In this document: positions 656-7,487 of the stretch, piece by piece
How the letters are laid out: the number at the start of each line of letters is the position of its first letter
How positions within the stretch are numbered: the first letter of the stretch is position 1
DNA from: an uncultured Alphaproteobacteria bacterium
GTDB taxonomy: Bacteria > Pseudomonadota > Alphaproteobacteria > CAAHEQ01 > UBA3637
Length of the DNA stretch: 64,000 nucleotides
Assembly (NCBI GenBank): GCA_944392585.1
Contig: CALXXA010000028.1
Span: 521-64,520 of the forward strand
Direction of reading: 5' to 3'
Translations under genes and position numbers: made by a program
Notes under the pieces: model-generated
What the model was told of the DNA's origin: nothing
The model's database searches: none
Seen by the model: only the letters and a program-made list of their open reading frames with translations

Positions 656-1171
656 TTATAAAAATTGAACGGTATCGGACAAGGGCTTCTTGTTCGTATG
701 CGTTGGCGCTGGTGCCGCCGAGGCTGTCGGATAACCGAACATCATGAGCAAAACGGGCACTTCGTTTTTGGGTAAATCAAAAGCCTTGCGCGTTTCATCC
801 GGGTTAAACATATTCACCCAAGTGGAATGAACGCCCAAGTCTGCGGCCTGCAACATCATGTGTGTTGCCACAATGGATGCATCCTCAACGCCCGAAGTAA
901 TAGTCTCATCAGTTGGGTTGTGCCATTCTTGATTTTTATCATAGCAAATAATCATGGCAAGCGGGGCATTGTAGTGACAAGGTGTCACAGCCCGCAACTT
1001 TTCCATGGCCGCCGGTGATTGAACAACATAAACCTTTTGCGGTTGGTTGTTCTTGGCGGTAGGGGCCACTCGACCTGCCTGTAAGATCTTTTGGATTTTT
1101 TCATCTTCAACAGGTTTAGTATCATAACTTCTTTGCGTATAACACACTGTACTCAGTTCTTCAAATGTCAT
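656..1171 (-). CDS. Nitroreductase-family protein, likely cargo of the mobile element
   Basis: 171 aa. NfsB/nitroreductase-fold-like sequence by eye. Clean ORF with a downstream terminator. Confidence 0.65.
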   Translation of the reverse strand: MTFEELSTVCYTQRSYDTKPVEDEKIQKILQAGRVAPTAKNNQPQKVYVVQSPAAMEKLRAVTPCHYNAPLAMIICYDKNQEWHNPTDETITSGVEDASIVATHMMLQAADLGVHSTWVNMFNPDETRKAFDLPKNEVPVLLMMFGYPTASAAPAPTHTNKKPLSDTVQFL

Positions 1172-1249: not shown

Positions 1250-2014
1250 TTAAGCCCCTTCATTGGTTTTTGCATATTCTTCCCCGTACATTTCCCATTG
1301 GTCAACCGAGCGCTTCCAATCTTTAATTGGATTGCCATACTTATCACACCACTTTTTGCGGGAATAATAAACATGGAACTGGTAAGGGTTGATTTTATGA
1401 TACTGCCTTACTTGACAATACTCTTCCACTTGTTCTATGGACGGGCTGTTATCACTTAGCCCCAACAGCTGTCCGATTGGAACCGGACCTTTAGAAATTG
1501 AGCCTTGCCTTGGCACACTCCAATTCATTGCCAAGCCTGAGGGAGTTTCTTTTTCATTATATACATTCTGGGCATTCTTTCCTTTCTTATTTATAGCCGC
1601 AGGTAGTTCGCCGGTCGTCCGCAGGTAGTTCGCGCCTGAGTCGCATGGGGATAATTCATCACCGCCTAACACATTGAAATCATTATATTTTAACATCTTT
1701 ATAAGTAGTCCGTTTGCTAAGCGTTTTGTATCAACTTCACCGGTTTTTTTGAGTTTTGCTATAACCCGCTTGATTTGTTGCGGGGATTTTTTTAAGGCCT
1801 CTGAGATCACAGCATAACTGGTCAGCAATTCGCCTTTATGGATAACATATTCATAAAGTTCTTTATCTTGGAAATTTGCCCGCAGTAAGAGATAAAGGTA
1901 CACTTGGCAGACATTTTCATCCGGAAGCCAACGCCAGTTTAAATAACGTCTGTCTAATTTGACAAAGCCAAGAGGAAAATGCGGATCATCCGTTTTTTGT
2001 TTGTTTTGAGACAT
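1250..2014 (-). CDS. Phage/plasmid replication-initiator-like protein (N-terminal winged-helix, DnaD/RepA-like), hypothetical
   Basis: 254 aa. N-terminal region resembles the wHTH of replisome-organiser/Rep proteins. Operonic with the serine recombinase and upstream of the iteron array. Confidence 0.45.
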   Translation of the reverse strand: MSQNKQKTDDPHFPLGFVKLDRRYLNWRWLPDENVCQVYLYLLLRANFQDKELYEYVIHKGELLTSYAVISEALKKSPQQIKRVIAKLKKTGEVDTKRLANGLLIKMLKYNDFNVLGGDELSPCDSGANYLRTTGELPAAINKKGKNAQNVYNEKETPSGLAMNWSVPRQGSISKGPVPIGQLLGLSDNSPSIEQVEEYCQVRQYHKINPYQFHVYYSRKKWCDKYGNPIKDWKRSVDQWEMYGEEYAKTNEGA

Positions 2015-2047: not shown

Positions 2048-3760
2048 TTAATCTTTGACGGGTGGAAAACCGAACAGTTTTCTTTGTTCGGTCCAACTGG
2101 CCGGGATAGAGGCCCTGAGCAATTCTCGGGCGGTCATTGTTTTGGGTTGAGCTCCCCGTAAAATGGCATCAATAATATCCGGTGCCAAAAAGGTGAGCCG
2201 AATTTGCGCTCCGATATAGGCTGGATCCTGATGATATACTTCGGCCAGTTCATGCAGGTTTAAGTTCTTGGCTTCCTGGGTTTCACGATAAGTAAAACCG
2301 TTGGCTAAAATCTTAATGAGATAACGGTCTTCTTTCTTGGATGGCTTTTCACCTGAGGTCAAATACAGCATATCCGACACTGTTTCGGGCAAATGAATCT
2401 CCTTGCTCCCACGATGTGTAATCAGGTTAAAGGGGACGGTAGATTCCATCAGTTCCGGCTTTGATTCATTGGGTTTCAAACTGGCTTTTAAGCGTTTATC
2501 CATCAGGTGAAGGGCCAACGGTTTCCAGACCACAATAATTTTATCGGCAAAAATCGTTACCCCTTGAAGCAGAAGGCTGACTATTTTTTCCTTTTGTGTG
2601 CCGGTCAGTTGTTGAAAAACAGAATCCGTTTCACGCATTGCATAAAAGACCTCGCTTTCTTTTAAGTCCGGTTGCACTTGGCAGGCTTCCTGCGTCAGCG
2701 CCTGTAAAACATACGGGGATTTAATCAGCGGATTGAGCAAGTCCATCACCAAATTATCCAACAAGTGCATGGGGATGGCATTCAGCCGACATGAATGAGG
2801 TCCGTATTTTTTGTGGGTGCTATCGGTATAATAATAGTATCGTTTGCCATTTTTTAAAGAATATCTGGGATAAAGTTTTTGCTCACAACATCCGCAAGAC
2901 AGAATCCCTCGAAGTAATCCGTTTTCCTCGTTTTTACTGACCGGTTTTAACCGCCGCCGCCGTATTTTTTGTGAATGTGAATTGAATAACTCCTGGGCGG
3001 CCTCAAAGGTTTTCTTATCAATAATCGGTTGATGCAGGCCCGGGAAAGAAGTCCCTTTATGCGTAATCTCGCCGATATAAACACGATTGTTGAGCATACT
3101 CCTTAAAAAGGTCCAGCCGGGAACTTTTCCCCGGAAAGTGCAATTTTCCCGTAAAAGGGTATGGCCCACCATGGATAAATTACCGGATGATAAAAACAGT
3201 TCATAAACGTGCTTGACCTTTTCGGCATCTTCCGGCACAACCACCAGTTTTTTATTTTCACCTTTATAACCAAACGGGGGAACACCGCCGACCCACATAC
3301 CCTTTTTCTTGGATGCCAGAATCTTATCGCGGATGCGTTCTCCACTGATTTCTCGTTCAAACTGCGCAAAGGATAACAGTACATTCAACATCAATCGCCC
3401 CATGCTATCCGCCGTATTGATATTTTGTGTCACCGATACAAAAGAGCAGTGGTGTTTATCAAAAATTTCAATCATCTTGGAAAAATCCAAAAGAGATCTG
3501 GTCAACCGGTCAATTTTATAAATAACCACCATATCCACTTTATTCGCTTGAATATCGGCCAGTAATTCTTGAAAAGCCGGTCGGTTCATATTACCGCCGG
3601 AATAACCACCGTCATCATAATGTTTGTCTATCAATTCCCATCCTTGATGACGTTGCGCCTTGATATAATTTTCCCCGGCTTCCCGTTGAGCTTCCAGGGT
3701 ATTAAATTGTTTTTCTAATCCTTCGTCTGTTGATTTACGTGTATAGATTGCACATCTCAT
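2048..3760 (-). CDS. Large serine recombinase (resolvase/invertase N-domain plus recombinase and zinc-ribbon domains)
   Basis: 570 aa. N-terminus 'IYTRKSTDEG...KIDRLTRS' carries the catalytic Ser-containing resolvase motifs. Cys-rich region 'CGCC...C' in the C-terminal half. Confidence 0.85.
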   Translation of the reverse strand: MRCAIYTRKSTDEGLEKQFNTLEAQREAGENYIKAQRHQGWELIDKHYDDGGYSGGNMNRPAFQELLADIQANKVDMVVIYKIDRLTRSLLDFSKMIEIFDKHHCSFVSVTQNINTADSMGRLMLNVLLSFAQFEREISGERIRDKILASKKKGMWVGGVPPFGYKGENKKLVVVPEDAEKVKHVYELFLSSGNLSMVGHTLLRENCTFRGKVPGWTFLRSMLNNRVYIGEITHKGTSFPGLHQPIIDKKTFEAAQELFNSHSQKIRRRRLKPVSKNEENGLLRGILSCGCCEQKLYPRYSLKNGKRYYYYTDSTHKKYGPHSCRLNAIPMHLLDNLVMDLLNPLIKSPYVLQALTQEACQVQPDLKESEVFYAMRETDSVFQQLTGTQKEKIVSLLLQGVTIFADKIIVVWKPLALHLMDKRLKASLKPNESKPELMESTVPFNLITHRGSKEIHLPETVSDMLYLTSGEKPSKKEDRYLIKILANGFTYRETQEAKNLNLHELAEVYHQDPAYIGAQIRLTFLAPDIIDAILRGAQPKTMTARELLRASIPASWTEQRKLFGFPPVKD

Positions 3761-4191
3761 TATCCAACTCCAAAAAAGCGTTTTCCCGAGGTGCGTATGC
3801 CTGTGATATGATGGGCAGCTGATGATAAACTGGTGTAATAGGTGCCGTCCATATCTACGCCCCTTTCCAAAATAGTGACACGATAGTCCGTCCCTTTATA
3901 GGTGCGGACTATCACTGTTCCCACCGGATATAAGCTTTTCTTGCGTTGTTGTTTTTCAAAGAGTTTTTTAATCAGGCTTTTTGTCTTTAAGGATAATCCC
4001 CCATGGCGTAATTCTTGCAAACGGTAAGAAACGCGCAAGATGTAAAACTCTTTATTGCCAATGCGGGCTTCTTGATTATACAGTTGCATATAATACTGTT
4101 TCAGGACATGAAAAGGCAAATCCGGCACAGTGCTAATATCAATGTTTAAGTCAAGATTTGTATCAACCATAGCGACTCCTTGTGAATACAA
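3760..4191 (-). CDS. DUF2924-family protein, a frequent partner of large serine recombinases
   Basis: 143 aa. Tail 'SLSSAAHHITGIRTSGKRFFG' is typical of DUF2924. Start overlaps the recombinase stop. Confidence 0.6.
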   Translation of the reverse strand: MYSQGVAMVDTNLDLNIDISTVPDLPFHVLKQYYMQLYNQEARIGNKEFYILRVSYRLQELRHGGLSLKTKSLIKKLFEKQQRKKSLYPVGTVIVRTYKGTDYRVTILERGVDMDGTYYTSLSSAAHHITGIRTSGKRFFGVG

Positions 4192-4321
4192 TAACGCTCT
4201 TTTTACAATTTATATCCAGTTAATTCTGATTATTTTTGGCACTTTCTTCCCCTTGATTGAAAACTTTCAGCAAAGTGGGGAGTATGACCAGCGCCAATTC
4301 GTGTAACGGATTGTTCATGGG

Positions 4322-4534
4322 CTACCTCTTATCAAAAGTGATTGCTGTTTTTTCGGCCGATTCCACCCAAGCATCTAAATCCGCCACATCATAAAAACTA
4401 TGACCGCGTACTTTTCTGAACTTGGGGCCGGAACCGTCCACCCGGTATTTTTGCAAGGTGCGTTGGGCTAACCCCAGATAGGTGGCGGCATCTTTTGTTG
4501 TATAAAAGCGTTGCGTTACTTTTCTTTTTTCCAT
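4322..4534 (-). CDS. AlpA/excisionase-family HTH phage regulatory protein
   Basis: 70 aa. 'TTKDAATYLGLAQRTLQKYRVDGSGPKF' matches the AlpA/Xis-type HTH. Confidence 0.7.
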   Translation of the reverse strand: MEKRKVTQRFYTTKDAATYLGLAQRTLQKYRVDGSGPKFRKVRGHSFYDVADLDAWVESAEKTAITFDKR

Positions 4535-4768
4535 CTTTTATTTCTCCTTAATTTATTGTTGACATTGCTCGCCTTATGCGAACAAGGCAAAGATAAAGCT
4601 TAAAAAGAAGAATAAACATTGAGATTTTTTTGAAGAAAACTAGCATTTTTTTAAAAATCCCAGTCTGCGAAAAAAAGTGTTGAGTACAAAAAACTTGTTC
4701 CTGTTCCCCCTGAAAAATATTGCCTTTTTATCGCCTTTTGACTATATCTTTGGATATAGGAGTATCTG

Positions 4769-5530
4769 ATGAAGGAATTTTACAGGAATTTATTTCAAGT
4801 ATATTTGTTTATGGCCCGGGCTTTATTTCCGAAAGATTCTGCTCTGCAACGCGAATTTTTACTGATAAAGGTCTCAGGCCTTGAAAAGGAAATGCCCGAA
4901 GTTTTTGAAAAATTGGGTGGGGTTTCACTTTTACGCCTGTACCGATCGGCCAAAGAGATGAAAAAATTACAAGAGCATATTCAAACAACCGATTGGTCTT
5001 ATGTCATGCGGATGTTAAAAACAATGCAGTCCATGCAACAGGATCCCAAATTGGCCGGTAAAGTCAGCCTCAACAAAGCGGCATTTGTTTTGGATAAAGA
5101 CATCAAAGAGGGAAAAGCTAAAGATTCCCAAAAGAACAATGCCCCTCGCTATAAAGATATCTGGCGCCAATATCGGGGTGTGGCCCATCTGATAGAGGCC
5201 CTTCAAATCATGAAAATGCAGTATCTGGAATGGACAGACAATCCTATCCCTTTTGAAGCCTTTTTGGCGTTGGCACTGGATCACCTGAATTTGGCCGCCT
5301 ATCAACAAGGGGAAGAACTGAAGAAATTGTACGAAGGACATACCAAAAAGCCCATTGTGCCGGCGGATGAATTTTTTGCGATAGAAAAACCAAAACTGGC
5401 CGAAGATGAATTAGCCATTGCCTTGGTGAAAGAGTGCCTTTTAAGCGACCCAACACTCAGTAAGAAAATCAGTAAATACCGCGCCCCGGTCTTTGACTAT
5501 GGGAACTTTGTCATTCCAAGCGATAACTAA
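4769..5530 (+). CDS. Hypothetical protein (253 aa) whose 3' end is duplicated downstream of the Abi cassette
   Basis: Clean ORF, GC-richer than the core genome, divergent from the alpA-like gene. The C-terminal 14 codons plus stop recur at 7104-7159. Confidence 0.55.
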   Translation: MKEFYRNLFQVYLFMARALFPKDSALQREFLLIKVSGLEKEMPEVFEKLGGVSLLRLYRSAKEMKKLQEHIQTTDWSYVMRMLKTMQSMQQDPKLAGKVSLNKAAFVLDKDIKEGKAKDSQKNNAPRYKDIWRQYRGVAHLIEALQIMKMQYLEWTDNPIPFEAFLALALDHLNLAAYQQGEELKKLYEGHTKKPIVPADEFFAIEKPKLAEDELAIALVKECLLSDPTLSKKISKYRAPVFDYGNFVIPSDN

Positions 5531-5541
5531 AATTGCTTAGC
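5486..5541. repeat. Direct repeat A (~56 bp) flanking the AbiE cassette; spans the last 14 codons and stop of CDS 4769-5530
   Basis: 'ccggtctttgactatgggaactttgtcattccaagcgataactaaaattgcttagc' is ~49/56 identical to 7104-7159. Confidence 0.8.
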
Positions 5542-5576
5542 TGATGTCATATTTTATCTATTTTGTAAAAAAATGC

Positions 5577-5605
5577 TTGATTTTCTCCTAAAACTCTAAT
5601 ATAAT
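5577..5605 (+). promoter_or_regulatory. Near-consensus sigma70 promoter for abiEi: TTGATT, 17-nt spacer, TATAAT
   Basis: -35 at 5577-5582, -10 at 5600-5605, RBS AGGAGA at 5615-5620, ATG at 5625. A 6-bp inverted repeat ctccta/taggag (5585-5590 and 5614-5619) flanks the -10 and is a possible autoregulatory operator. Confidence 0.5.
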
Positions 5606-5624
5606 TGGAGTAATAGGAGAAAAT

Positions 5625-6212
5625 ATGATATATTCTTTTGACGATTTAAAAACAAAATATAGTAATTACGCCAAAATTTACGATAAAATACGATATGAAG
5701 TAAAGGCAGGCCGCTTGATACCTATTGCACGTGAATTATATGAAACCGATCCTACGACCGATGGACAATATCTGGCCGGACGTATTTTCGGACCGTCGTA
5801 TTTATCTTTTGATTATGCACTGTATGTTTATTCCCTCATTCCGGAAACTGTTTATAAGACATATACATCTGCCACATTTAACAAGCGCAGAAAAAAGAAG
5901 TATCAAAATAATTTTGGTTTGTTTACATACAGGGATGTTCCGGCAGAAGTATACCCTCTTGCCGTATTAATTCATGAGGAGAATGGCTATTCTTACCAAA
6001 TTGCAACGCCCGAAAAGGCATTATGCGATAAATTATACACTTTACCGCCCATCAAGAATTTGACAGAATTAAAGGAACTTTTGTTTGAAGATTTGCGGAT
6101 AGATGAAGGAGAGTTCGCCAAGCTTAATAAGGAAGTATTAGAAAAAATAGCTCCTCTTTATCATTCAACCAATCTTCACATGCTTAGTAAGCTGATTAGG
6201 AGAACTTTATAA
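5625..6212 (+). CDS. AbiEi-like antitoxin/transcriptional regulator (type IV TA, N-terminal wHTH)
   Basis: 195 aa. 'VKAGRLIPIARELYE' matches the AbiEi wHTH signature (G-x-L-x-R-[IV]-[AR]-R-G-x-Y). Stop overlaps the ATG of the downstream DUF1814 gene (ATAATG). Confidence 0.65.
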   Translation: MIYSFDDLKTKYSNYAKIYDKIRYEVKAGRLIPIARELYETDPTTDGQYLAGRIFGPSYLSFDYALYVYSLIPETVYKTYTSATFNKRRKKKYQNNFGLFTYRDVPAEVYPLAVLIHEENGYSYQIATPEKALCDKLYTLPPIKNLTELKELLFEDLRIDEGEFAKLNKEVLEKIAPLYHSTNLHMLSKLIRRTL

Positions 6213-7072
6213 TGCAAACCATTTTAACCCAGATGTTGGAACAATATCAAACAAAAACTCTGACGGAAAAGAAAAACGCTATAAAGGAGGTTGTCCAAGA
6301 GATTGCCTTATGCGGGTTATCTCGAGCCGATTTCTTTAAACATGTTGCATTTTATGGCGGTACAGCATTGCGTATTTTTTATGGCCTCGATCGTTTTTCT
6401 GAAGATCTGGATTTTTCGCTTATATCTCCAAATCCGGATTTTGATTTAAAACCATATTTTAATGGGCTGGAAACAGAACTGGCTTCGGTCGGCTTAAAAT
6501 TTTCCATAGAAGAAAAAATAAAGTCCGTTGATTCTGACATTAAATCAGCCTTTTTAAAGGGAAATACAAAAGAACATATTGTCAGTATTTATGGCGTGCA
6601 GGACATCAATATTAACCCTAGTGAGATAATCAAAATAAAGTTTGAGATTGATACCAATCCTCCGGCCTTTGCCTCCTTTGAGAATAAATACCGATTACTG
6701 CCGTCACCATATCAAGTTAAACTTTATGATATGCCGTCATTATTTGCCGGTAAGGTTCATGCAGTTATTTGTCGGACTTGGAAAAATCGTGTTAAAGGGC
6801 GTGATTTATATGACTATATATTTTACCTGTCGCACCGATCAAAAATAAATTTACCCCATTTAAAAGCAAGACTTGTAGATTCTGGTGTTTTAAAGGACGA
6901 TGATACATTTACGATAGAAACTTTAAGAACGATGTTAAATGAACGTTTTGAAGCTATTGATTACGAAAGTGCAAAACAGGATGTATTACCGTTTATTACC
7001 GATGCGAATAAATTGGATCTATGGAGTAAGGAGTTTTTCATAGATATTAGTAAAAATCTTGCGGATAAATGA
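6212..7072 (+). CDS. AbiEii/AbiGii-family nucleotidyltransferase toxin (DUF1814)
   Basis: 286 aa. 'FYGGTALRIFYGLDRFSEDLDFSL' is the hallmark AbiEii NTase motif (GG...DLDF). Translationally coupled to the upstream wHTH gene. Confidence 0.8.
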   Translation: MQTILTQMLEQYQTKTLTEKKNAIKEVVQEIALCGLSRADFFKHVAFYGGTALRIFYGLDRFSEDLDFSLISPNPDFDLKPYFNGLETELASVGLKFSIEEKIKSVDSDIKSAFLKGNTKEHIVSIYGVQDININPSEIIKIKFEIDTNPPAFASFENKYRLLPSPYQVKLYDMPSLFAGKVHAVICRTWKNRVKGRDLYDYIFYLSHRSKINLPHLKARLVDSGVLKDDDTFTIETLRTMLNERFEAIDYESAKQDVLPFITDANKLDLWSKEFFIDISKNLADK

Positions 7073-7103
7073 TCAATAACAAATAAAGATTTACTTCTAA
7101 TAT

Positions 7104-7159
7104 CCGGTCTTTGACTATGGTAATTTTGATATTCCAAGCGATAATTAAAATTGCCTAGC
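7104..7159. repeat. Direct repeat B; encodes '...PVFDYGNFDIPSDN*', i.e. the tail of the 4769-5530 protein with mostly synonymous changes
   Basis: Alignment to 5486-5541. Differences are ggg/ggt, aac/aat, gtc/gat and aac/aat. 'attgcctagc' recurs at 7208-7217. Confidence 0.8.
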
Positions 7160-7179
7160 GGATAAAGATACGAAACGAA

Positions 7180-7206
7180 AAAGGCGCAAAGTTATGCCTT
7201 TTTATG
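7180..7206 (+). terminator. Possible rho-independent terminator after the Abi cassette
   Basis: aaaggc-N10-gccttt followed by tttta. Confidence 0.35.
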
Positions 7207-7374
7207 GATTGCCTAGCAAAGAAAGTTTTGGGTGGTTCATTTGCTTAAATAGCACTTTTGCTTTCATCTCACAAAAAACACAGATGAATTGTGGTAAATG
7301 GGCATTTTCACATTGAGCCTAAAATTCATCACAAGAGCCTTTATAACTTAGCTTTCATCGCCTCATTTCAGGCA

Positions 7375-7400
7375 CGAAAAAAGCCCGTCTAAAACGGGCT
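7375..7400 (-). terminator. Rho-independent terminator of tRNA-Ala
   Basis: agcccgt-ctaaa-acgggct hairpin, followed on the minus strand by TTTTTTCG. Confidence 0.6.
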
Positions 7401-7411
7401 GAATCTTAAAT

Positions 7412-7487
7412 TGGTGGAGGTAAGGAGGATCGAACTCCTGACCTTTGCAATGCCATTGCAACGCTCTCCCAGCTGAGCTATACCCCC
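7412..7487 (-). tRNA. tRNA-Ala, anticodon GGC
   Basis: Reverse complement: GGGGGTATAGCTCAGCTGGGAGAGCG TTGCA-ATGGCAT-TGCAA AGGTCAGGAGTTCGATCCTCCTTACCTCCACCA. Cloverleaf with a 7-nt anticodon loop centred on GGC. CCA is encoded. Confidence 0.9.

Follow-up and report, generated by a model that had tools for sequence, protein, structure and literature searches.

AbiE systems, described from Lactococcus (pNP40) and Streptococcus agalactiae (Dy et al. 2014, PMC3985639), are bicistronic, with overlapping stop and start codons of abiEi and abiEii. They encode an AbiEi-family antitoxin and a DUF1814 (PF08843) nucleotidyltransferase toxin that has motifs I/II and a motif of the GRDxYD type, have inverted repeats over a promoter with a 17-nucleotide (nt) spacer, and are carried on mobile elements. 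All of these features recur in a two-gene cassette found in the DNA analyzed in the current study, a stretch of 64,000 nt (the window) from an uncultured gut alphaproteobacterium. This AbiE cassette lies behind an orphan gene, here called p253, in a small genomic island beside a tRNA-Ala gene. It differs from the known systems in the length of the overlap (1 nt here, 4 nt there), in its host, in being known from sequence alone, and in its AbiEi protein, which falls below the Pfam thresholds and is recognized only by a PADLOC subfamily model. Comparison with related loci showed that the cassette is a young unit, which has spread recently between already diverged islands in different host species.

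Defence genes with alternative cargoes at a fixed position are known from the P2/P4 hotspots (Rousset et al. 2022, PMC9122126) and from defence hotspots flanked by core genes (PMC10250203). As in the P2/P4-type hotspots, cargo is exchanged here between otherwise related elements; unlike them, AbiE is carried by a small island with a serine recombinase at tRNA-Ala and is bracketed by a 60-bp duplicate of the end of the upstream gene. Direct repeats that duplicate the 3' end of a target, with the target gene intact and the second copy an untranslated duplicate, are also produced by Campbell-type integration, or by an attP that carries a replacement gene 3' end. In contrast to such insertions, the present cassette has no integrase, and its repeats are mosaic and allele-variable, where such insertions would have an identical core and a fixed crossover. 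Other small modules that lack a recombinase of their own, and that often carry toxin-antitoxin genes, are integron cassettes and Xer-dependent pdif/IMEX modules. These likewise have flanking repeats and are present or absent at a fixed site, but here no attC- or dif-like architecture and no IntI were found in the island, and each repeat directly copies the 3' end of a coding sequence.

The product of the second gene, AbiEii, matched 229 of the 238 positions of the Pfam profile PF08843 (E 9.3e-31; 108 bits, cut-off 22.5) and the PADLOC model PDLC02293 over its full length (E 2.7e-111). It contains motifs I/II (YGGTALRIFYGLDRFSEDLDF; F47-Y-G49-G50-T...S63-E-D65-L-D67-F, signature YGG..x..SEDLDF) and, as the conserved C-terminal Asp motif, a GRDLYD motif (K195-G-R-D-L-Y-D), which align with the same motifs in the DUF1814 structure PDB 4o8s. 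A search of the PDB gave weak, motif-level matches of AbiEii to two 'putative' DUF1814 structures, and no match for AbiEi. The definitions of the nucleotidyltransferase motifs (hG[G/S]..DhD) were taken from the S. agalactiae study (PMC3985639), in which mutation of the corresponding AbiEii motifs abolished GTP binding and toxicity. None of the Pfam AbiEi models was matched at threshold by the 195-amino-acid (aa) AbiEi protein (best PF11459, AbiEi_3, E 0.1; PF13338, no match); its assignment is based on the PADLOC model PDLC02230, which matched residues 8-193 of 195 (E 2.4e-61).

The two AbiE genes are the only open reading frames of the cassette, and overlap in the sequence TAATG (6210-6214). 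Upstream lies a promoter with 10 of 12 consensus matches (TTGATT-17-TATAAT, 5577-5605), and inverted-repeat arms at 5580-5600 and 5604-5624, which are 86% complementary, cover the -35 and -10 elements and the ribosome-binding site. This arrangement is kept at the same place in a relative that is 83% identical (L032). Autoregulation by AbiEi via inverted repeats has been reported (PMC3985639, PMC7319586), and the operon layout with its promoter-overlapping inverted repeats fits these published operons. By sequence criteria, positions 5546-7103 are predicted to form an intact AbiE type IV toxin-antitoxin/abortive-infection operon, whose products are bona fide members of the two families. From knowledge of the family, AbiEii would be a GTP-binding nucleotidyltransferase toxin of the DNA polymerase beta type that arrests growth, and AbiEi would neutralize it and repress the operon by binding to the promoter-overlapping inverted repeats. 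The pair may abort phage infection and/or stabilize its carrier, acting as an addiction module for the island. The GC content of the cassette is 34.3%, compared with 42.0% in the island backbone and 37.2% in the host flank. An earlier reading of the window (the original prediction) had proposed a discrete, AT-rich AbiEi/AbiEii module with a near-consensus sigma70 promoter and a stop/start overlap; all of this was borne out, but the PF13338 match that it had named for AbiEi was not found.

Scanning of collected genomes, metagenomes and assemblies yielded 49 related loci, all in metagenome-assembled genomes of uncultured, mostly gut, Alphaproteobacteria; three of the loci were added by the metagenome scan. 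Removal of duplicates left 30 distinct loci, 14 occupied by AbiE (window, L001, L004, L005, L006, L008, L010, L013, L020, L022 type, L034, L036/37, L038, L039), 14 empty (L002, L003, L007, L009, L012, L014, L015, L017, L018, L019, L040/41, L042, L046-48, L049) and two with other cargo (L011, L043). Near-identical cassettes were present in all 14 occupied loci at this single site, with both repeats and identical spacing. In the 14 empty loci the end of p253 is joined directly to window position 7164 onwards (junction ...GATAATTAAAATTGCCTAGCGGAT / AAAGATACG...), which is the empty site that the original prediction had expected for an inserted module. One of these (L042) has the chromosomal surroundings of the window locus (RadC-M24-L32-PlsX). 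The other cargo is a gene for a 558-aa OLD-family ATPase (GajA/AriA-like), which lies on the opposite strand right after the p253 stop codon and is flanked by 8 nt only (AATTAAAA). With alternative cargo and empty sites at one position, the site between the p253 stop and the terminal island segment (post_B) is therefore a variable defence-cargo hotspot, holding AbiE, an OLD-like ATPase or nothing.

Among the 14 occupied loci, the mean pairwise difference was 0.0055 in 5546-7103 as against 0.10-0.13 in repeat A, repeat B, post_B and p253. The drop in diversity is about 20-fold, coincides exactly with the inner repeat edges, and includes intergenic and synonymous sites. Identity to the window was 99.4-99.8% for the cassette, 91-98% for the backbone from the recombinase to the helix-turn-helix (HTH) gene, 84-97% for p253 and 82-98% for post_B, whereas syntenic host genes were 69-76% identical (24-31% different). 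Backbones of the islands differ by 1.3-9%, and in the backbone tree occupied and empty islands are interleaved. The smallest backbone distance, 1.3% between an AbiE-bearing (L004) and an empty island (L015), is larger than the divergence of the cassette.

The nearest AbiE relative outside the island family (L032/L033, 83% identical) shares only 5568-7072, from the promoter to the stop codon; its chromosomal surroundings are unrelated, and the repeats that flank it are of another kind. In the region L032:3924-5830 these repeats are GC-rich and about 40-75 nt long, with one copy upstream and three downstream, the first two starting 1625 nt apart; they could be repetitive extragenic palindromic (REP)-like or miniature inverted-repeat transposable element (MITE)-like sequences, or another cassette boundary. 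A different type of element (L022:1-4318; also L023-L031 and L044) is found at the same tRNA-Ala, and the recombinase backbone is absent within the 4-5 kb fetched upstream. It contains an OLD-like ATPase gene 71% identical to the L011 cargo, an AAA_15/AAA_21 gene, an AAA_33 kinase-like gene and the 3' half of p253, followed by the same AbiE cassette with both repeats. A contig of 1647 bp with a 28-nt terminal overlap (L035) was considered as a free circular form of the cassette, and was rejected as such; the overlap is equally explained by collapse at a 32-mer common to repeats A and B (compare L034).

The two repeats that bracket the cassette are identical at 53 of 60 positions (88%) and are offset by 1618 nt; the best 60-nt direct window in shuffled sequence reached at most 37/60 (30 shuffles, first 12 kb). 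The coding part of repeat A reads ..PVFDYGNFVIPSDN followed by the stop codon and is the end of the coding sequence at 4769-5530. The conceptual translation of repeat B is PVFDYGNFDIPSDN followed by a stop codon. Repeat B is not expressed, because it lacks a start codon and an in-frame TAA (7098-7100) lies ahead of it. The motif ATTGCCTAGC occurs at 7150-7159 and 7208-7217 (2 occurrences, 0.08 expected), with a one-mismatch copy, ATTGCTTAGC, at 5532-5541. The last ~10 nt of repeat A (..TAGCTGAT) travel with the cassette.

Copies of repeat B vary between loci at codon positions that are also variable in live p253 ends (Gly-Asn/Gly-Gln/Gly-His; GAC/GAT; CCA/CCG; AGC/AGT). Thirteen of the 15 non-major variants in B copies are also present in live A or empty-site alleles, and the reading frame of 14 codons and a stop is kept in 13 of the 14 untranslated copies. 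These data support the derivation of repeat B from alleles of the p253 3' end. Similarity of A and B within a locus was slightly above that of random pairing (p = 0.02). The only single-nucleotide polymorphisms (SNPs) linked to the cassette are the outermost ones, namely position 3 of repeat B (A in six loci, never in live copies) and the end of repeat A (..CTGAT in occupied loci, ..CGGAT or ..AGGAT in empty sites). The bodies of both repeats vary in a mosaic manner among occupied loci, neither being constant, and Mantel tests of adjacent segments gave r values of about 0, i.e. no linkage. Recombination breakpoints could not be mapped because the region is too mosaic. Repeat B (plus strand) folded better than shuffled sequences (z = -2.4), whereas z was about 0 for repeat A. 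An attC/dif-like fold in repeat B was rejected, as only one allele supports the pairing GGYAATTT/AAATTGCC, which A lacks and which shows no covariation across loci.

Several statements of the original prediction concerned these repeats. Their presence was correctly seen, at a length of ~56 instead of 60 nt, as were the recurrence of ATTGCCTAGC at 7208-7217 and the identity of repeat A with the genuine 3' end of p253 (last 14 codons and stop). Repeat B had been described as the relic 3' end of a diverged allele. It does represent an allele of the same gene end, but not one fixed, decaying relic, since the copies differ and have variants in common with live alleles. Recombination between related elements, which had also been proposed, is the best explanation in view of the mosaic repeats and the variants shared with the live pool.

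The insertion was duplicative, with the last 42 coding nt, the stop codon and 15 nt of p253 present on both sides, and p253 stays intact because its 3' end is duplicated in this way. The insertion site lies between the p253 stop and the terminator-like hairpin of that gene, at 7178-7203. On balance, we favor the reading of a defence cassette that has spread recently and is exchanged by recombination via the duplicated end of the gene and the sequence on either side, with homologous recombination as the most likely route. Gain, loss and reshuffling of the flanks would take place by RecA-type homologous recombination through the 60-bp duplicate and adjoining island sequence, by Campbell-type integration and excision of a cassette-plus-repeat unit and/or by double crossovers in the flanks. 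The original duplication may have come from a Campbell-type event with a circle carrying 60 bp of the p253 end. Exchange with empty-site islands would reach only to the edges of homology, which would explain the sharp edges of the low-diversity tract, the live-allele variants in repeat B, and the linkage of only the outermost SNPs to the cassette. Mosaic A and B copies with unlinked segments are what frequent homologous exchange with a diverse pool of islands predicts.

Some points weigh against exchange by homologous recombination. The junctions of two unrelated cargoes fall on the same few nucleotides (TAAAA/TTGC), and the post-stop sequence is nearly invariant even in a 73%-identical variant of p253; both observations fit a specific site as well. 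With 60 bp and ~88% identity, the repeats offer RecA a poor substrate. A different or illegitimate joining event is needed for the OLD-like cargo, which has an 8-nt flank only. Moreover, homologous recombination is a process that we infer. The main rival, site-specific capture, would treat the post-stop sequence (TAAAATTGCYTAGC..) as an att-like site cut by a trans-acting recombinase, which would be either the island's own serine recombinase together with DUF2924 or a tyrosine/Xer recombinase of the host, and defence cassettes with a copy of the site and no recombinase would integrate and excise as circles, as in integrons or IMEX. We regard this as unlikely, even though it would account for the joining of both cargoes within the same 8-9 nt, the high conservation of the post-stop region and of the paired ATTGCCTAGC in all loci including diverged ones, the sharp diversity edges, the outer-edge repeat SNPs linked to the cassette and the terminal overlap of L035, for which the 32-mer common to A and B is an equally good explanation. 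One fixed crossover in TAAAATTGC would be expected from such capture, with a constant A or B among loci, but both are mosaic; later recombination could have erased the pattern. A 2-bp core suffices for serine recombinases, which are not known to generate repeats of 60 bp. Neither a dif-like nor an attC-like architecture is seen in the repeat (the fold of B is specific to a single allele, and A lacks it), the OLD-like cargo has an 8-nt repeat only, and in L001 the cassette is present beside a recombinase with an internal deletion. A narrower version, in which a dedicated capture site after the p253 stop (TAAAATTGCCTAGC.., repeated 58 bp downstream) would serve an integron-like exchange of AbiE and OLD-like cassettes in trans, is distinctly unlikely. 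Here catalysis would be by the serine recombinase/DUF2924 pair or a host recombinase, and the 60-bp gene-end copy would be the attachment site. An integron gene cassette would end in an attC site, an imperfect palindrome with R''/R' boxes, and would be served by IntI/attI; the present cassette does not qualify as one, as it has no terminal inverted repeats, the B fold is allele-specific, and the serine recombinase is the sole recombinase of the island.

The cassette could also be ancestral, with one duplication followed by losses only, so that every empty site is a deletion between A and B. Direct repeats favor deletion, and every empty-site sequence has the composition expected of a left part from A and a right part from B. 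Such a history cannot explain the data, because the cassette is less diverged than the closest pair of backbones and its diversity is ~20-fold below that of the flanks; in addition, the diverged islands with a 283-aa p253 are empty. We therefore consider it improbable as the whole account, and some losses besides gains are likely. The adjacent and co-oriented position of p253, with no terminator between it and abiE in occupied loci, would be in line with a three-component system, in which p253 is a sensor or regulator of AbiE and the 3'-end duplicate reflects selection for linkage. This is very improbable, since p253 is accompanied by no AbiE in 14 loci and by OLD-like cargo in two, is 5'-truncated beside the AbiE cassette in the L022 type, and is absent from the L032 locus with the 83%-identical operon, and since AbiE is a self-sufficient two-gene system (PMC3985639). 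The role of p253 as a third partner suggested in the original prediction was thus not upheld, and it can be called a docking site only insofar as cargo is inserted at this locus; p253 is an island core gene beside the hotspot and not an AbiE component. Hardly any credence can be given to a transposon insertion with the repeats as target-site duplication, although the insert is flanked by direct repeats. To our knowledge, 60 bp is far beyond known target-site duplications. As the original prediction had argued, the two copies are no simple duplication of this kind, for they differ at 7/60 positions in a pattern that matches natural alleles. Searches of reading frames, families and repeats found no recombinase or transposase gene and no terminal inverted repeats in the cassette, which was accordingly not classed as a transposon or insertion sequence.

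The locus is a clean natural example of the movement of a defence module, in which one 1.56-kb AbiE cassette, at least 99.4% identical, is found in backbones that differ by up to 9% and in hosts whose housekeeping DNA is 24-31% apart. It can be compared with exact empty sites and with an alternative cargo at the same nucleotide position, and the hotspot of this island family could be used for mining new cargo genes. The locus also indicates that recombination with live alleles can keep a duplicated gene end 'fresh' even though this end is not translated. Both AbiE and cargo hotspots are well known, and knowledge of AbiE itself is unchanged. This AbiE cassette in the hotspot of a new island family has a tidy population-genetic signature but demonstrates no new principle.

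The features of the island and its right-hand boundary are listed in the table below.

Table. Features of the AbiE cassette and its carrier island (positions of the window)
Feature	Position	Strand	Evidence or remarks
DnaD-like putative replication/helicase-loader gene	1250..2014	-	PHROG phrog_2514, E 1e-13
Large serine recombinase, 570 aa	2048..3760	-	Pfam Resolvase, Recombinase, Zn_ribbon_recom
DUF2924 protein	3760..4191	-	PF11149, E 2e-29
Predicted HTH_17 (excisionase/AlpA-like) DNA-binding protein	4322..4534	-	PF12728, E 2e-10; PHROG 66 excisionase/regulator
p253, island core gene, 253 aa, orphan family	4769..5530	+	In every related island whatever the cargo; stop codon is the cargo insertion point
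Repeat A	5486..5545	+	Live last 14 codons and stop of p253, and 15 nt
AbiE cassette, unique body	5546..7103	+	1558 bp; 99.4-99.8% identical across 14 distinct loci
Sigma-70-type promoter of abiE operon	5577..5605	+	TTGATT-17-TATAAT
Putative AbiEi operator	5580..5624	.	21-nt inverted-repeat pair
abiEi antitoxin/repressor, 195 aa	5625..6212	+	PADLOC PDLC02230; Pfam AbiEi_3 sub-threshold
abiEii nucleotidyltransferase toxin, 286 aa	6212..7072	+	PF08843, PADLOC PDLC02293, motif alignment to 4o8s
Repeat B	7104..7163	+	Untranslated second p253 3' end and 15 nt, joined to native downstream sequence
Island terminal segment post_B, 248 bp	7164..7411	+	Contiguous with p253 in empty sites
tRNA-Ala(GGC), integration target or island boundary	7412..7487	-	

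The p253 protein had no match in Pfam, PHROG, PADLOC or NCBIfam. A profile search of 1.84 billion representative proteins yielded a family of 16 representatives, none of which has a Pfam domain. Its AlphaFold2 model is all-helical and of low confidence (pLDDT 45). Both p253 (4769-5485) and post_B (7164-7411) were two to three times more diverse (about 0.10-0.13) than the backbone at 2064-4700 (about 0.03), and p253 may be under diversifying selection.

These serine-recombinase islands at tRNA-Ala make up a small family, not described before, of uncultured gut Alphaproteobacteria. In the window the island is ~7 kb long, with the AbiE module near its right end beside the tRNA gene, beyond which the host genes for RadC, methionine aminopeptidase, L32, PlsX and FabH follow. 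The carrier is counted as a mobile element because of its recombinase, DUF2924, HTH_17 and DnaD-like genes, because it always abuts tRNA-Ala yet in different chromosomal neighborhoods, and because the identity of its backbone is above that of host genes. The DUF2924 gene is conserved in all loci and is the usual companion of the large serine recombinase in these islands, and the DnaD-like gene has two alternative alleles in related islands, which are ~29% identical. The recombinase gene is damaged in some copies, with an internal deletion of ~250 codons in L001 (6028-6992) and truncations in L040 (1266-2492) and L049 (930-2120), and these islands are therefore probably immobile remnants. In a search of viral contigs no relative of p253 and a single relative of AbiEii (65% identical, L021) were found; the island is thus not catalogued as viral.

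Besides the hairpin at 7178-7203, post_B contains the second ATTGCCTAGC (7208-7217), the terminator of the tRNA gene (7382-7400, minus strand) and an inverted copy of a repeat motif of the left end (7226-7237). The hairpin is conserved in all related loci, and in some of them it still pairs through an alternative GCG/CGC register. It is flanked by the two ATTGCCTAGC copies, which are 58 bp apart and conserved in all related loci, diverged ones included; the paired motifs could be a protein-binding site. The tRNA was the sole match in the Rfam search. In L013 the island homology ends ~20 nt into the 3' end of tRNA-Ala (L013:10645-10665; window 7412-7430), followed by unrelated DNA. This suggests an island boundary within the gene, and a tRNA 3' end that the island carries or duplicates. 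The tRNA-Ala bodies differ between hosts by compensatory stem changes, and two hosts have tRNA-Ala(CGC) instead of GGC.

A nitroreductase gene (window 656-1171) was present in only some of the islands. The left end of the island (239-600) contains iteron-like repeats, with three tandem 21-nt units (CCAAGTGACCACCCAAAAGTA) at 431-493 and a fourth at 538-558, a related GACCAGCCAGAA set at 244-341, and a 56-nt pair at 330-385 and 544-599. The motif GACCACCCAAAA occurs in four copies at this end and in one inverted copy at 7226-7237 (5 occurrences, 0.34 expected). These repeats may serve the DnaD-like protein as a replication origin, or may be the terminal repeats of the island.

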